A DNA stretch of 64,000 bases, from the NCBI GenBank assembly GCA_045535075.1, contig JAZSKX010000017.1, forward strand, positions 64,001 through 128,000. Reading direction: 5' to 3'. This document shows, one piece after another, positions 30,446-63,027 of the stretch; the stretch's first letter is position 1, and each line of letters starts with the position of its first letter. This DNA comes from Candidatus Spyradenecus sp. GTDB lineage: Bacteria; Verrucomicrobiota; Verrucomicrobiia; Opitutales; UBA953. A program made the translations under genes and the position numbers. The notes below the pieces were generated by a model that had not been told where the DNA came from, ran no database searches, and saw only the letters and a list, made by a program, of their open reading frames with translations.

Positions 30446-33187
30446 ATGAAAAAATCCGCTCTCTCCGGGATCTCCGTATTCACACTTTTCGCTGCCGCTA
30501 CACTCTGCGCAGAGGAAACCGACACAAGCACCGCGCCGGAATTGGGCGGCGCGACGTCTGCAGCGGTTAGAGCCTTAATTCATATCATCGGGGACGCAGT
30601 GAAGATTGAGGCAAAGCTCATAAAGATTCTGATTAATGCTACGGACGGCGTTGACGAGGAAGTTCTGATTTACGGGCATAATAATGAGGAGCAAAAAGGC
30701 GACGGGATTACTTTTACGGATGGAGGAGGATACTCGGGAGATGACATTGTTACCGGCTATCATATTAAAGACCTTTATCCGGAGGCATCGAATAGCGGAC
30801 AAATCGACGTAAAAGGAATTGAAGTCTATTCGCCGTATTCCGGGAAAGAGGCGGTTTGCGGGATTTACCACGAACAAGCCGGGAACGGTGCAAGACAAGG
30901 GCTTGGCAAGATCGCAGTCTCGGAAAAGGTGGACGTTTCGTATTTCGAAGACAACGCAAGCGTCGCCGGGATTTGGCAAAAAGGCTCAGACACAAGCGAA
31001 CCGCCGTATTTTTACGAGAGCGTGAAATTAAACGGCGTTAATATTTCGGCAACGGGAAGCGGCGCAACGGCTTACGGAATTGTTCAGGACGGGAACGCGC
31101 ACATAGACAAGAACCTTGAGCTTCACGGAAGCGTTTCAAGCTCACGCGGGAACGCGTTCGGTGTTAAGGGCGGCGTTTACGGTGGAAACATCTTGGCGGA
31201 CCTGACCGTCTCGGCGGGCGAAAGCGGAGTCGCCGCCGGAATTTATTTAGCCAAAACCGCGGGAAGCATCGACGGTTCAATCGACGCAGACGGAAACAGG
31301 ATAATGAATTCTGACGGGAGCGTCAAAAAAGCAAAGCTCACCGTAACATCTAACACAGCCTCGGTCGGCATCCTCTTGGGCGGGGAAAGCACATTCGACT
31401 CAGACGGGAACGTAACCGGCGAAACCAAAGGCGGGAACGTTTCCGGCGCACTCGCGAATTACGATATTTCGGTGGAGAGCAAATCTCAGAATCCGGAAAA
31501 CATGGCGATTGGCGTTTACATGCACAACGGCGCTTCGGTCGACTCGATGAGCGATTTGAAGATTTCCGCCATTTCTTACTACGGTCCCGCCGCCGGATTC
31601 GTTTACGACAACACGGGAACGGAAACAATGTCCGCAGGGACAACGATAAGCCGTTTGGATATTACGGCGGAAACGTTTACCTCCGTGTTTGAAGAGTCCG
31701 ACTGCGGACGCACCGCCGGGATTCTCATCGGAAAAGATGTCGATTTTAAAGTCGATGATTCGTCAATCACCGTCACGCCGGGGAACGGGCGGGACAGTTA
31801 CGGTTTGGCTTACGGGAAGAACGTTTCCGGCGATGCGGAAAACGGCGGGAGCGCAGACGACGGCGGGGTCGGGATCTTCAATCACACAAACAAAGATTCG
31901 TCCGGCTTGGAGATTACGAATTCGCAAATTGTCGCTTACGCCTGTAACACGGCTACGAAAGATGCGAATGCTTACGGGCTTTTTGTAGGCTATGACAAGA
32001 CTTACGATTACGAAGGAAATGAATTTACGGCGATTAGCCCGAGCGCGAACGCTTACGGGCTGTATGCTGCGGGAGCCGCCAAGGTGAGCAATCTTACAAC
32101 GCTCACGGCGAAAGATTCTTACAACGCCTACGGCGTCTATTTGTTCAATGCGGCGGAAGTGGACGCTACAAGCCTGAAGAAAGTCGTAGCACACTCAAAC
32201 TCTGTCGGCGGGAGCGCATACGGTATTTTTGTCGATAATAGCGCGAATGGAGAATTCAGCAATTTCACGGGAGATGTCGACGTTCTTTCATTTTGCGGAA
32301 CGGCTTACGGTGCGTATGTCAACGGCTTGTCGGAGTGGGATTTGAGTTCTGCGACAATCAAGGTTAAGAGAACGGAAAGCGCTGCCGATTTTGAGAGCGT
32401 CAAAAACGAGAATAATATCGGGAGCACGGATAGCTCCGACGAAAGCGGAACTGCCTACGGCGTGTATGTAACGAGAGAGGCGAGCGTCTCCGTGAAAAAC
32501 GTAAGCGTTTCCGGAACCGGGAACCTCGTCGGAATTTGGGCGGGAACGGGAACGTCCGTTTCGCTGGCAGACGGCGCGACAATTGACGCAACGGGAGGCG
32601 ACGCGCTTGCGTCCGACGGCGATATGACGATCGCTTCGCTCGGCTCGGCGCAACTTGCGGGGAATGCTTCAGTCGCGGGAACGCTTCATTTCACACAGGG
32701 CGAGTTTTTGCTCAACGCGGGAACGATTGCCGCCGAAACGTGGAAAATCGGAAGCGAGGATGCAAACGGAATCGTAACGACGGCAAAAGTTGAGCTTGCG
32801 GGAAACACCGTATTTGAAGGGAACGAGCTGACGTTCTACATCAAAAAACCGGAGACGCGTGCAATGCAGGATGCCGTGATTTCCGTCGCCGAAGCCACAA
32901 CGTTTACCGCCGAAGCCGCAACGTTTACCGCCTTGGCGACAACGATTAACGTCGTTCTCGATCACAACGGCGAATACGGTGTCGGCGACGTGATTACGCT
33001 TATCGGTGGAAACTACGATTTGGGGAATGTGTCGGACGTCGTTGTCCGGGGAAGTGATTTGGGTTACACCTACGGGAACGTCGCGGGCGGCTGGGGCATT
33101 ACGTTTATTCCGGAGCCGTCGGCATTCGGCTTGCTTGCGGGCTTGGGCATGCTCACGCTTGCCGCTTCGCGCCGCCGCCGAAAGTAA
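30446..33187 (+). CDS. PEP-CTERM surface protein, 913 aa, with beta-helix-like AYG-x-Y repeats
   Basis: Signal peptide MKKSALSG...TLCA; repeated A(Y/F)G(I/L/V)(Y/F); C-terminus IPEPSAFGLLAGLGMLTLAASRRRRK. Confidence 0.88.
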   Translation: MKKSALSGISVFTLFAAATLCAEETDTSTAPELGGATSAAVRALIHIIGDAVKIEAKLIKILINATDGVDEEVLIYGHNNEEQKGDGITFTDGGGYSGDDIVTGYHIKDLYPEASNSGQIDVKGIEVYSPYSGKEAVCGIYHEQAGNGARQGLGKIAVSEKVDVSYFEDNASVAGIWQKGSDTSEPPYFYESVKLNGVNISATGSGATAYGIVQDGNAHIDKNLELHGSVSSSRGNAFGVKGGVYGGNILADLTVSAGESGVAAGIYLAKTAGSIDGSIDADGNRIMNSDGSVKKAKLTVTSNTASVGILLGGESTFDSDGNVTGETKGGNVSGALANYDISVESKSQNPENMAIGVYMHNGASVDSMSDLKISAISYYGPAAGFVYDNTGTETMSAGTTISRLDITAETFTSVFEESDCGRTAGILIGKDVDFKVDDSSITVTPGNGRDSYGLAYGKNVSGDAENGGSADDGGVGIFNHTNKDSSGLEITNSQIVAYACNTATKDANAYGLFVGYDKTYDYEGNEFTAISPSANAYGLYAAGAAKVSNLTTLTAKDSYNAYGVYLFNAAEVDATSLKKVVAHSNSVGGSAYGIFVDNSANGEFSNFTGDVDVLSFCGTAYGAYVNGLSEWDLSSATIKVKRTESAADFESVKNENNIGSTDSSDESGTAYGVYVTREASVSVKNVSVSGTGNLVGIWAGTGTSVSLADGATIDATGGDALASDGDMTIASLGSAQLAGNASVAGTLHFTQGEFLLNAGTIAAETWKIGSEDANGIVTTAKVELAGNTVFEGNELTFYIKKPETRAMQDAVISVAEATTFTAEAATFTALATTINVVLDHNGEYGVGDVITLIGGNYDLGNVSDVVVRGSDLGYTYGNVAGGWGITFIPEPSAFGLLAGLGMLTLAASRRRRK
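32887..32932 (+). repeat. 21-bp in-frame tandem repeat (2.2 copies)
   Basis: CGCCGAAGCCACAACGTTTAC CGCCGAAGCCGCAACGTTTAC CGCC, one mismatch; encodes AEATTFT-AEAATFT. Confidence 0.85.
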
Positions 33188-37949: not shown

Positions 37950-39326
37950 CTATTTCAAAAGCGAGACCGTGAAAATCACGATAATTCCGAGCGGCGCGAC
38001 ATATCGCAAAAGGAAAATGTAAGTCCGGAAAAAGCGAATGGCGATCGCGTCATTGTTGCTGAGTTGAGCACGGACGAATTTGCGATCCAAATACCATCCC
38101 GTAAACCACGAAACAAAAAGCCCGCCAAGCGGCATCATCCAAGTTGCCGTAATCGTATCGAGCCAATCGAAAAAGGATTTCCCCGCGAACACGAGCGACG
38201 AACCGTTCCCGAGGGAACTTGCCGCAAAATAGCCGGCAACAAGCGTAAACGCGGAAGTCAAAATTACCGCCTTAACCCGAGAAACATTAAATTCCTCATG
38301 TAAAAACGCCGTCGCAATCTCATACATCGAAATCGCGGAAGTAATCGTCGCCAAAATTAACAAAAGGAAAAACAGAACCGCCCAAAGCTGACCGAGCGGA
38401 AGCGCTTGGAAAAGCTGCGGAAGCGTTTCGAAAATCAGCCCCGGCCCGCCGTTTTTCAGCGCTTCGGTAATCTGCGCAGAGTTCGTTCCCGCGACCGCAA
38501 ACGCAGTCGAAAAAATCGTAACCCCGGAAAGAATCGCCATCAGCGTATCAACCGCCGCGAGCTGACCGGCAGTCTTTCCCAAGCGCACGTCCGAACCGAA
38601 ATACGACGCGTAAGTAATCAGGCAGCCCATCCCGAGCGAAAGCGAGAAAAACGCCTGCCCCAGCGCAGAAACAAAAACCTGCGGAGTAACATGCGAAATA
38701 TCCGGACGGAAAAGATAAAGCAAGCCCTCCGACGCATTCGGAAGCGTAACCGCTCGCACGCACATCACAATCAAAATGACAAACAACAACGGCATCATCA
38801 GCTTGCTCGCAAATTCAATGCCTTTTTTGACACCGAATCCGACAATCACCGCCGTACCGATAACGGAAACTCCCAACCAAAAAGTTTGCCGCCAAGGGCT
38901 GTTTGCCAAATCCGCAAAAATAGCGCTAAACGCCGCCGGCTCCGAAACACTCGAAAGCTTCCCCGTCAACGCAAGTACGAAATAATCAAACGTCCATCCC
39001 GCGACAACCATGTAAAAGCTCAAAATGAGCATGACCGCGACGACCGCAAAAATTCCGAAATAATGAAACGGTTTGCCCGGCGCAAGATTCCGATACGCGC
39101 CCGCCGGATTCGCCTTCCCCGCGCGCCCGACGATAAATTCCGCCAAGACCAACGGGATCCCGAAAAAGAGAACGCAGGCAAGATAAATAAAAACAAAAAT
39201 CGCGCCGCCGCCGTTCGCCGTCTCGCTCGGGAAACGCCAAACGTTTCCAAGCCCGACCGCCGAACCGGCCGTCGCCGCAAGAATTCCTAATTTTGTCCCG
39301 AAGGTAACACGTTTCGATACACTCAT
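37950..39326 (-). CDS. Sodium-dependent transporter, NSS/SNF family
   Basis: AGSAVGLGNVWRFP, NGGGAIF, GQAFFSLSLG, GPGLIF. Confidence 0.93.
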   Translation of the reverse strand: MSVSKRVTFGTKLGILAATAGSAVGLGNVWRFPSETANGGGAIFVFIYLACVLFFGIPLVLAEFIVGRAGKANPAGAYRNLAPGKPFHYFGIFAVVAVMLILSFYMVVAGWTFDYFVLALTGKLSSVSEPAAFSAIFADLANSPWRQTFWLGVSVIGTAVIVGFGVKKGIEFASKLMMPLLFVILIVMCVRAVTLPNASEGLLYLFRPDISHVTPQVFVSALGQAFFSLSLGMGCLITYASYFGSDVRLGKTAGQLAAVDTLMAILSGVTIFSTAFAVAGTNSAQITEALKNGGPGLIFETLPQLFQALPLGQLWAVLFFLLLILATITSAISMYEIATAFLHEEFNVSRVKAVILTSAFTLVAGYFAASSLGNGSSLVFAGKSFFDWLDTITATWMMPLGGLFVSWFTGWYLDRKFVRAQLSNNDAIAIRFFRTYIFLLRYVAPLGIIVIFTVSLLK

Positions 39327-39467
39327 CTCAAAATTTTCTCATGTTAAAGCGTCGCGTTAAAGCCCAAAACCAAAATAAAACGCCGACGCGTTCCCGTGAT
39401 TCTTAACCCCGAATTTAAACCGCCCCCGCGCGCACAAAACACGCCCTAAAACAGGCGCAAAAGTCGC

Positions 39468-39494
39468 TTGACAAATTTTAGGGGGGGGTAGAAT
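39468..39494 (+). promoter_or_regulatory. sigma70-type promoter with G8 homopolymer spacer (candidate phase-variable)
   Basis: TTGACA-AATTTTA-GGGGGGGG-TAGAAT, 15-bp spacer. Confidence 0.8.
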
Positions 39495-39588
39495 GACATT
39501 TCTTTAAAAATAGGAATTGTGTTCAACTTAACAGCCTTTCCTATTCTTTTCGAAAACCTATAAATCCAAACAACAACTACATAAAAAA

Positions 39589-40482
39589 ATGAAAAAATAC
39601 ATCATTACGACCTCTGCTCTTATCGCAGCTACCGTTGCCGCAAATGCTTGGACGGCATCGGTAGCGAACCGAATTTGGGAGCAGGACACGGAAACGACTG
39701 ATTATCAGTACAAAGAAGTTATTCGTTCGTCGTTTACGCTTGCAAACATAGGGTCAGCCTCAAACAGCACGGACACTCAAATTCACGGGAACAACATGGT
39801 GGTGAATTTTGACGAAGATGCGCGTTATGAGATTACCTTTGAAATGAAGCACTACAAAGGCTTGGGAGATACAAGCCCCGCTTCCGGAATGCTTTCCATG
39901 GTAAGCAAGGGAAATGATGTTTGCATTCTCTTTGGTAATTCTCCGACGCAGATGGGACAATTAGGCGTTCTCTTGGGAGATCGTGCGGATGTTCCGAATA
40001 GTTCCGCACTGGAATCTCTTGCCTTTGGTTCCGCAGGAAATCAGGTTTGGACGATTTTTCCTAACAATCCTCCCTGGGCGACAGGAGATTATCAGTACAC
40101 GCTTATTTTTGAAACGTTTAAAGACCGTTCGATTAACGACAAAATATATTACGGCGTGAAGAATGAGAGCACGGGTTCGTATGGATATCGCCTGGATCTT
40201 CATGCAGGACATCTTGGCGCGGGCGGCGCGACAAGTAAGGTTTTTGACGATATCGGATTCCACCTTACGGGCGACCCCACGTCTGTAGGAGGCAACACCT
40301 CAAGCATGGGTGATGTTACCTTCATCGGAAACGAAGGCGGTGTCCCGCAAAACTCTTTTGTAAAATGGACGCGGACGGCAGTGCCGATTGAGCAACCTGC
40401 CGTTCCGGAACCGTCGGCATTTGGTTTATTGGCTGGCTTGGGGGCGCTTGCACTTGTCGGCACGCGCCGCCGACGCCGCTAA
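39589..40482 (+). CDS. PEP-CTERM surface protein, 297 aa
   Basis: Signal MKKYIITTSALIAATVAANA; C-terminus VPEPSAFGLLAGLGALALVGTRRRRR. Confidence 0.9.
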   Translation: MKKYIITTSALIAATVAANAWTASVANRIWEQDTETTDYQYKEVIRSSFTLANIGSASNSTDTQIHGNNMVVNFDEDARYEITFEMKHYKGLGDTSPASGMLSMVSKGNDVCILFGNSPTQMGQLGVLLGDRADVPNSSALESLAFGSAGNQVWTIFPNNPPWATGDYQYTLIFETFKDRSINDKIYYGVKNESTGSYGYRLDLHAGHLGAGGATSKVFDDIGFHLTGDPTSVGGNTSSMGDVTFIGNEGGVPQNSFVKWTRTAVPIEQPAVPEPSAFGLLAGLGALALVGTRRRRR

Positions 40483-40522
40483 GGGAAAATAACGCCTCGC
40501 GCGTTCGATTTCCCTTTTAGTC

Positions 40523-40558
40523 GCGTTCCCGTGATTGATTTCACGGGAACGCTTTTTT
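40523..40558 (+). terminator. Terminator formed by an inverted motif pair
   Basis: GCGTTCCCGTGA-ttgatt-TCACGGGAACGC-TTTTTT. Confidence 0.88.
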
Positions 40559-62309: not shown

Positions 62310-62968
62310 TTATTTGCGGCGGCGTGTGCCGACGAACAGTAACGCGCTCAAGCCCGCAAGCAAACCGAACGCCGACGGCTCGGGAACGGCGGTAACGTTC
62401 AAGCGAATCCACGGGAGATAGTCTGAGGAGCCTCCGGTATAACCGACACCCGAATTATTGTCATCGACTTTTTTACTCCAAAGATAATACGCAGGATCTC
62501 CGCTCTCGGCGACAAATTTGAATGTGTAAGTTTTGTCGGTTTCGAGAATGAGACCGTCAAAACTAAACGTTGAGGCATATCCTCCGGCATTATTACTGTC
62601 ATTCGCCCCCGAAGCCGCTTGTGCCGTGAGAATCTCTTTTGACTTAGCGATTAATTCTTCTCCATCGAAAACCTCTATTTTTGTCGCGTTCGCCTCAGTG
62701 GAATCGTAGTAACCGCCAGATGCGGTCAAATTGAGCTGAATCCCGTTCAAATAGTAATCAAGAGAAGAATCAATTTTAAAATCTGCGGAACTATTGTCCG
62801 TGAATCCGCTCCAACCAAGGGAAAGCGTGAACGCATTTCCGGAATTTTTTATCCAAACATTGGTTCCGGAAGTACCGGATTCCGTTCGTCCGATATAGTC
62901 AACGGATTCCGCGTTCGCAAAAGCGGTTCCCGTTGCAAGGAGAGCCGCAAGTGTAATGATTTTTTCAT
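62310..62968 (-). pseudogene. PEP-CTERM surface protein, frameshifted in an A6 run after the start codon (219 aa if A7)
   Basis: ATG 62968 followed by AAAAAA is one base out of frame with IITLAALLATGTAFANA...VPEPSAFGLLAGLSALLFVGTRRRK. As written, the ATG frame stops after 39 aa. Confidence 0.78.
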
Positions 62969-63001
62969 AGTTTTCTGAGTTGTGTTATTAAAAAAGGTCT
63001 T

Positions 63002-63027
63002 ATTTTACCCCCCCTAAAAGTTGTCAA
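63002..63027 (-). promoter_or_regulatory. sigma70-type promoter with G7 homopolymer spacer (candidate phase-variable)
   Basis: Minus strand: TTGACA-ACTTTTA-GGGGGGG-TAAAAT, 14-bp spacer. Confidence 0.8.

Follow-up and report, generated by a model that had tools for sequence, protein, structure and literature searches.

Two promoters with a G run in the spacer

We analyzed a window of 64,000 nucleotides, by which we mean the whole stretch of DNA under study (G000:C16:64001-128000). It belongs to G000, an Opitutales (Verrucomicrobiota) metagenome-assembled genome (MAG) from the ruminant hindgut, 1.95 Mb in 18 contigs with 52% G+C. Two small PEP-CTERM genes lie in the window, each behind a promoter in which an uninterrupted run of Gs separates the −35 from the −10 hexamer (Table 1). 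A preliminary description of this DNA had reported a 15-bp spacer at 39468-39494 and, 23.5 kb away on the other strand, a 14-bp spacer; both motifs were found in place, at 39468-39494 on the forward strand and at 63002-63027 on the reverse strand. It had further noted, correctly, that the window holds no G/C run this long (7 or more) besides the G8 and G7 tracts, that ten Gs would bring either spacer to 17 bp (7 + 10), and that no such tract precedes the large PEP-CTERM gene at 30446.

Table 1. Coordinates of the genes, promoter parts and hairpins in the window
Feature	Position	Strand	Remarks
913-aa PEP-CTERM gene, tract-less contrast	30446..33187	+	PF07589 19.2 bits, just below the 20.7 cut-off
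−35 hexamer TTGACA, promoter 1	39468..39473	+	Sequence read
Fixed spacer part AATTTTA, promoter 1	39474..39480	+	Aligns with ACTTTTA of paralogous promoters
G8 tract, variable spacer part, promoter 1 (spacer total 15 bp)	39481..39488	+	
−10 hexamer TAGAAT, promoter 1	39489..39494	+	TAAAAT/TAGAAT at −10 in all 12 paralogous promoters
94-nt leader, −10 to ATG, ending in an A run	39495..39588	+	Hairpin, 39509-39516 with 39538-39545
297-aa PEP-CTERM gene	39589..40482	+	Putative signal peptide, lectin-like β-sandwich ~42-265, PEP-CTERM tail 271-297
Intrinsic-terminator-like hairpin, 12-bp stem + T6	40523..40558	+	Closes the one-gene unit
Second small PEP-CTERM gene, disrupted	62310..62984	−	ATG 62968-62966 out of frame with the 224-codon body
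Promoter 2: TTGACA (63027-63022), ACTTTTA, G7 (63014-63008), TAAAAT (63007-63002)	63002..63027	−	Spacer 14 bp

The composite promoter pattern matched twice in the window and in none of 100 dinucleotide-preserving shuffles, whereas a bare G7 is not above chance there (shuffle mean 5.1; the 3 overlapping matches observed were equalled or exceeded in 81 of the 100 shuffles). The signal is therefore the composite motif and not the G run alone. Judged from the sequence, the key feature is the place of the G run between two near-consensus hexamers, of which TTGACA/TTGACG is also the −35 element of tRNA promoters in G000. A standard scan for promoters with 16-18-bp spacers upstream of both window genes returned no alternative promoter. 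We rejected a G-quadruplex, because the promoter holds a single G run, and a translational effect of the tract, because it lies upstream of the −10 hexamer.

The 297-aa gene and its lectin-like product

The 297-aa gene forms a one-gene unit, with a divergent SNF-family transporter gene on one side and a convergent DUF1015 gene on the other. In the three nearest species the transporter gene is kept and the PEP-CTERM gene is absent from the syntenic site, from which we conclude that the PEP-CTERM family turns over quickly. The leader of the 297-aa gene is about 60 nt longer than those of its paralogues and folds into a hairpin with an 8-bp stem (39509-39545; MFE −9.8 kcal/mol, z = −2.0); Rfam gave no match in 39300-39700. 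A similar inverted repeat occurs in the leader of a paralogue at C15:90371.

The hairpin downstream of the gene is one of many. Behind many G000 genes the same consensus returns, GCGTTCCCGYG ... CRCGGGAACGC and then a T run (e.g. 40523-40552). It explains most of the long A/T runs and resembles a genome-wide terminator or a REP-like element.

The predicted protein scores above the cut-offs of the general PEP-CTERM models (TIGR02595, 20.3 bits against 16; PF07589, 23.9 against 20.7) and below those of all the specific NCBIfam PEP-CTERM families (NF038129, for example, 24 bits against 65). It has about 20 full-length homologues with 38-63% identity, the named ones being annotated as PEP-CTERM sorting domain-containing protein [Opitutales bacterium]. 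An AlphaFold2 model built from 27 sequences is all-β, with a pLDDT of 81.9 and a pTM of 0.80. The top Foldseek matches in the PDB are all legume lectins, down to an E-value of 3e-8, and VIA superposition on legume lectins gave Z-scores of 12.3-13.0 and an rmsd of 3.0-3.7 Å over 165-179 residues, spanning 42-265. The protein thus models as a concanavalin A-like/legume-lectin-like β-sandwich, with sugar binding only putative.

A family of tract promoters across the genome

The genome-wide search for the motif and its downstream genes proposed in the preliminary description returned 12 promoters of the form TTGAY[AG]-N7/8-G7..G10-TA[AG]AAT in G000. Ten of these precede small PEP-CTERM genes, 8 intact and 2 broken. 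One drives a 74-aa TM2 protein (PF05154 match), and the last a 230-aa product that is probably a β-barrel, its match to the outer-membrane β-barrel family PF13505 being sub-threshold (22.8 against 28.7 bits). The idea of a dispersed family behind a common promoter cassette is thereby borne out, with 12 loci in G000 and the cassette also present in 7 of 18 congeneric species. The proposed cargo, a PEP-CTERM surface family, holds as the main class but not as the exclusive one, given the TM2 protein and the probable outer-membrane β-barrel.

When the 12 regions are aligned, the shared cassette runs from A-tract-rich DNA about 40 nt before the −35 through the signal-peptide codons, and its length varies solely in the G count and in the 1-2 bases preceding the tract. 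The ATG follows the −10 hexamer by 32-38 nt at 11 loci and by 94 nt at the 39468 locus. The 8 intact PEP-CTERM products are 207-297 aa long, start with MKK[YH]I..LAALLAAGSAFANA and end in IPEPSxFGLLAGLGALALVGxRRRRR. Using a strict tail pattern, we counted 40 PEP-CTERM frames of at least 150 aa in G000; 9 have a G run of 7 or more inside the 140 nt upstream, and all 9 encode 300 aa or less.

Long G/C runs are rare in this genome. Listing all runs of 6 or more with their context, we found that the tract promoters hold 12 of the 28 runs of at least 7. For lengths 5-10 the observed counts are 443/53/10/8/6/3, plus one run of 14, against 2515/653/169/44/11/3 expected from base composition. Runs of short and middling length thus fall 5- to 17-fold below expectation, and the deficit is gone at lengths of 9 and above, which is the picture expected if a few long runs were kept on purpose.

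The family members share their ends. All 21 aligned members match PF07589 at E ≤ 0.1 (best 1.1e-05), and in all of them the N terminus, MKKYI..LAALLAAGSAFANA, reads by eye as a signal peptide, with AFANA in the cleavage region and a Cys after the signal peptide in 0 of 21. Both ends are nearly invariant, whereas the mature parts are only 21-31% identical to that of the 297-aa member; Laminin_G_3 (Pfam) was found in 3 of 21 paralogues and a trans-sialidase lectin domain in 1 of 21. An exosortase is encoded in the same genome (PF09721, 118.6 bits at C1:131029-131976, in an open frame of 418 aa). Together with the PEP-CTERM tails of the cargo, it makes up a predicted exosortase-type anchoring set, in line with the preliminary description.

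Two members behind tract promoters are broken. The second window gene, described earlier as a second small PEP-CTERM gene with a tract promoter, keeps the promoter but is not intact: alignment with all paralogues shows one base missing in codon 4, and the only entry for this region in the ORF list is an internal frame of 146 aa. Its switch would therefore drive a broken gene. A short A run after the ATG was considered as the defect and rejected in favor of the codon 4 deletion seen in the alignment. The other broken gene (C9:34259; G000:C9:33504-34226) has an in-frame TGA where its paralogue has a Trp codon. C-terminal PEP-CTERM fragments also occur at C5:105757, C5:153513 and C5:265196.

Tract promoters depart from the 17-bp spacing of the genome

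To read the tract lengths against the habits of the host, we compared them with the spacing of other promoters in G000. Upstream regions of tRNA genes carry TTGAC[AG] or TTGCG, 17 bp, and then TTTATT, TTCAAT or TTCTAT; with a simple score that allowed nine spacings, 17 of the 35 regions scored (42 tRNAs) had their best −10 at 17 bp. Downstream of 225 intergenic, tract-less TTGACN sites, T[AT]NNNT occurs 23 times at 17 bp and 4-11 times at each other spacing from 10 to 24. The tract-less promoters of the same gene family in tandem arrays of three related species agree, with 5 of 7 at exactly 17 bp, one at 18 and one unclear. Indirectly, these data suggest that the spacer optimum of the host polymerase may be narrow and that a single base pair either way matters. 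TTGAC[AG]-N17-TA[ATG]AAT has zero occurrences in G000 beyond the tract set, so that the near-perfect hexamer pair would in effect be reserved for tract promoters.

The tract spacers in G000 measure 14, 14, 14, 15, 15, 16, 16, 16, 16, 17, 18 and 18 bp, that is, one at 17 bp, six at 16 or 18 and five at 14-15, including both window loci. Over 40 tract loci in four species (G000, G001, G002 and G013), counted from the matched strings with one doubly matching site in G013 taken as a single locus, 5 spacers are of 14 bp, 14 of 15, 11 of 16, 6 of 17, 3 of 18 and 1 of 19. Loci with a longer fixed part do not make up for it by having fewer Gs. The earlier view that the 15- and 14-bp window spacers lie off the optimum agrees with the 17-bp spacing of ordinary G000 promoters, and both window promoters are predicted to be off or low in this genome.

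Tract length differs between paralogues, species and strains

Across 41 genomes searched, the reversed control pattern had 0 matches. Of 18 other species in the genus, 7 carry the tract pattern with at least 7 Gs; 22 genomes from other genera of the family and order gave no match. Among 22 distinct loci from these relatives, 17 lie before PEP-CTERM genes, 2 before TM2-like genes and 2 before DUF1232 genes; in one the gene runs off the locus. In three species the TM2 tract promoter has spacers of 15, 14 and 15 bp. At a syntenic promoter in a tandem array the tract is G8 in G001, G9 in G002 and G10 in G013, the last two copies being identical in the upstream flank as printed and differing by two substitutions downstream. 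The only interrupted tract seen, GGGGAGGGG, belongs to a relative's array. The relatives' MAGs (Opitutales, Verrucomicrobia, Candidatus Spyradenecus) come from sources including goat, sheep, water-deer and buffalo rectum or colon, and the public runs that contain the 39468 locus are sheep, goat, gut or feces metagenomes.

For a comparison of strains, contigs from four runs of four studies, at depths of 7-48, were aligned to 38900-40500. Such contigs collapse minority lengths, so each gives one length per sample and within-sample mixtures are invisible: G9 in X1 (depth 7), G8 in X3, G8 in X4 and G6 in X5 (a 101-kb contig, depth 48). Outside indels the contigs match the window at 97-99% identity. 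All remaining indels in these 1.6 kb fall in the A run that precedes the ATG (39583-39589; +1 in X5, −1 in X4) and change the leader length alone. Homopolymers are therefore generally unstable here, and the strain differences show mutability and not function. Taken together, tract length varies between paralogues, between syntenic loci of three species (G8/G9/G10) and between strains at 39468 (G6/G8/G8/G9).

In metagenome contigs, the family-specific pattern TTGACRACTTTTA-G6+-TARAAT had no match. The generic pattern TTGACA-N6-9-G8+-TARAAT was present at at least 118 loci (L132-L249), with G8 to G12, in gut and other metagenomes; among the matches listed, 0 of 119 generic sites reach a complete PEP-CTERM gene (55 ORFs run off, 41 encode other proteins and 23 sites have no ORF). 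Many of these generic G8+ promoters, again among the matches listed, stand before lipoprotein-like or secreted genes, and some recur with differing G counts (for example GAATGC-G9/G10). They do not bear on strain differences within the G000 family.

A poly-T counterpart in sister species

The orthologue of the 297-aa gene in G010 (63% identity) has the promoter TTGACA-CTATGC-T11-GC-GAGAAT, in which a T run takes the place of the Gs. Searching the genus with TTGAC-N4-9-T9+-N0-5-RARAAT, we found 29 sites in 5 of 19 genomes (16 in G007, 8 in G016, 3 in G010 and 1 each in G012 and G017), with the common form TTGACA-N5/6-T10..12-GC-GAAAAT. The pattern had no match in the poly-G species, and its control pattern had 0. 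Of 12 poly-T loci retrieved (L256-L267), 10 precede PEP-CTERM genes of 225-322 aa, among them the G010 orthologue, with spacers of 16-19 bp.

Since either base occurs as a homopolymer at the same position before the same class of gene, this finding argues for selection acting on the instability or length of the tract rather than on a G-specific site. The TGC-GAAAAT end of the poly-T form resembles an extended −10, which might lessen the dependence on spacing.

Proposed mechanism and alternatives

We think it likely that the genes behind tract promoters undergo slipped-strand phase or volume variation of the porA and vlp kind. The G run would be the length-variable part of the spacer in a strong σ70-type promoter, and this promoter would belong to a cassette that was copied ahead of the members of a small-surface-protein family. 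During replication, slipped-strand mispairing would add or remove Gs and so shift the −35/−10 distance around the 17 bp that the host RNA polymerase appears to prefer. Transcription of each gene would then drift reversibly and independently of the others between strong (17 bp), weak (16 or 18 bp) and off (15 bp or less, 19 bp or more), and each tract-driven protein is probably switched on and off at random. The products, mostly of the lectin-like β-sandwich type, would be exported by their signal peptides and passed to the exosortase via the PEP-CTERM tail, so that the population would display a shifting combination of surface proteins. As for the benefit, the lectin-like fold of the model makes variable glycan adhesion at least as likely a purpose as evasion of phage or immunity, which the preliminary description had favored. 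G000 encodes MutS and MutL, as Neisseria does, and slippage rates may for this reason be moderate.

We also entertain, with somewhat less than even confidence, the broader idea that in this hindgut genus the spacer homopolymer is a selected, portable mutability module for PEP-CTERM lectin-like genes, poly-G in one clade and poly-T in its sister clade.

Several observations speak against switching. The spacer measures 17 bp at only 6 of the 40 loci, the commonest length being 15. Three species retain a TM2 tract promoter of 14-15 bp, which would be odd if such lengths were fully off. The G adjoining the −10 might serve as a partial extended −10 and make spacing less critical. Of the 12 genes behind these promoters, two are broken. 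In Mycoplasma agalactiae, the account of vpma reports that a homopolymer at the promoter −10 does not switch (PMC2268961), so the position of a tract alone does not prove the mechanism.

Much of this would suit an alternative that we regard as unlikely but worth weighing, namely that the tract has a fixed structural or regulatory role in a cassette under conventional regulation, for example as a rigid spacer, as a partial extended −10 or as the site of a regulator, and that its length polymorphism is tolerated noise with little effect on expression. The conserved TM2 promoter, the 40-locus mode of 15-16 bp rather than 17, and the T tract of vpma as reported (PMC2268961) all lean this way, as do the extended −10 that can be read in TGC-GAAAAT and the A run at the 39468 locus, a second homopolymer that is also strain-variable. 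A base-specific site is difficult to reconcile, however, with the interchange of G and T tracts at one position in sister clades. Tract-less family promoters and tRNA promoters hold 17 bp closely, whereas tract promoters span 14-19 bp, and uninterrupted tracts of G7-G10 are kept at about 40 loci despite the avoidance of G runs in the genome.

Decay is a less probable account still. It would have the family silenced, the spacers shrunk below working length and the genes on their way to becoming pseudogenes, which fits the two broken genes (the TGA for Trp on C9 and the 1-nt deletion in the window), the C-terminal gene fragments elsewhere in G000 and the missing 297-aa gene at the syntenic site of the three nearest species. 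Yet 8 downstream PEP-CTERM genes are intact and their signal and sorting ends conserved, both promoter hexamers are at or near consensus in all copies and across species, and the tracts are uninterrupted, with GGGGAGGGG in a relative's array as the single exception.

That the lengths are assembly or sequencing miscalls of one true length is very improbable: homopolymers are error-prone, the evidence comes entirely from assemblies and one G000 contig ends at a G8 run, but G7-G10 coexist inside one assembly, G6-G9 appear across four independent assemblies at depths of 7-48, the same design recurs in independent MAGs of eight species, and no systematic shortening is visible.

Relation to known phase-variable systems

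Most of what is understood about phase variation through homopolymers comes from pathogens such as Neisseria, Haemophilus, Campylobacter, Mycoplasma and Treponema, and to our knowledge the biology of PEP-CTERM/exosortase cargo is poorly known. The vlp genes of Mycoplasma hyorhinis share a 5' cassette and differ in their mature parts; their tract is poly-A and their products are lipoproteins with repeat regions.

In Neisseria meningitidis porA, as described, a poly-G tract lies in the spacer, one G more or less alters transcription, and the optimum is 17 bp (PMC3899988, PMC7864442). The slipped-strand reading of the G000 loci shares with it a G run inside the spacer of a σ70-type promoter of a surface-protein gene. 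The two differ in that porA is one locus for a porin in a pathogen, whereas here 12 paralogous loci, with PEP-CTERM lectin-like cargo, would switch in a gut commensal of the Verrucomicrobiota.

Spacer-length switching is likewise described for vlp, maa2 and vmm (PMC2268961), and vlp is presented there as a multigene surface family with a homopolymer in the spacer of each gene and combinatorial expression; the original study, by Rosengarten and Wise in 1991, appears in the reference list of PMC11868660. Like vlp, the present loci form a multigene family in which every gene has its own spacer homopolymer and a shared 5' cassette precedes variable mature parts. Unlike vlp, the tract is poly-G (poly-T in sister species), 0 of 21 members have a Cys after the signal peptide, and anchoring would be of the PEP-CTERM/exosortase type. 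By these sequence features the system works like vlp but is not a member of the Vlp-type lipoprotein family.

In Treponema pallidum, several outer-membrane-protein genes (tp0126 and tpr E, G, J and L) are reported to carry poly-G tracts of 7-11 in their promoters, with an effect of tract length on transcription; in tp0126 the tract is placed between −35 and −10 and acts by spacer length, whereas the tprL tract overlaps the −10 region, and the authors ruled out a spacing mechanism there (PMC7864442). As in T. pallidum, several surface genes in G000 each have a promoter poly-G. T. pallidum differs from G000 in being a pathogen, in its gene family and in the tprL tract over the −10. Where the Akkermansia genome paper takes up PEP-CTERM proteins and homopolymers, it treats them separately (PMC3048395), and in literature outside subscription journals we found no paper linking such switches to Verrucomicrobia or to PEP-CTERM proteins. 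The mechanism is thus already known in kind; what sets the present case apart is how large the family is, that its PEP-CTERM cargo is lectin-like, and that poly-G in one clade is paired with poly-T in its sister.

If slipped-strand switching is correct, a pathogen-type device would control a whole surface-protein family in an uncultured, ruminant-gut commensal lineage. PEP-CTERM/exosortase cargo would gain a testable role as variable lectin-like surface proteins, and metagenome-assembled consensus genomes would hide cell-to-cell expression states. The exchange of G for T in sister clades would provide a natural way to tell selection for mutability from selection for a particular sequence. On the broader idea of a portable mutability module, at least 10 independent switches would yield a randomly re-dealt "lectin coat" with on the order of a thousand combinations, serving glycan attachment or escape from phage and host; contingency loci would be a normal part of commensal Verrucomicrobiota, and PEP-CTERM cargo would have its first role at the population level.

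Other homopolymer runs in G000

Some runs outside the 12-locus pattern also lie near PEP-CTERM genes. At C11:15343-15351 a G9 run directly adjoins TTGC, a −35-like element, some 18 bp ahead of TAAAAT; the gene that follows encodes a PEP-CTERM protein of 327 aa, and this would be a thirteenth tract promoter of different layout. T9 (C16:44353) and T11 (C11:60743) runs sit in promoter-like spacers upstream of PEP-CTERM genes of 272 and 427 aa, respectively. Non-family runs of G8-G10 occur at C15:157554, C16:220339, C16:286852 and C17:54; several are followed by TAT, and one is at a contig end. Finally, a run of 14 Cs on the gene strand (C5:24047-24060, locus L253) is located close to the 3' end of an epimerase-like gene, whose product shows GxxGxxG at the N terminus by eye, and another such gene starts just downstream of the run; this is a candidate phase-variable glycan-synthesis locus.
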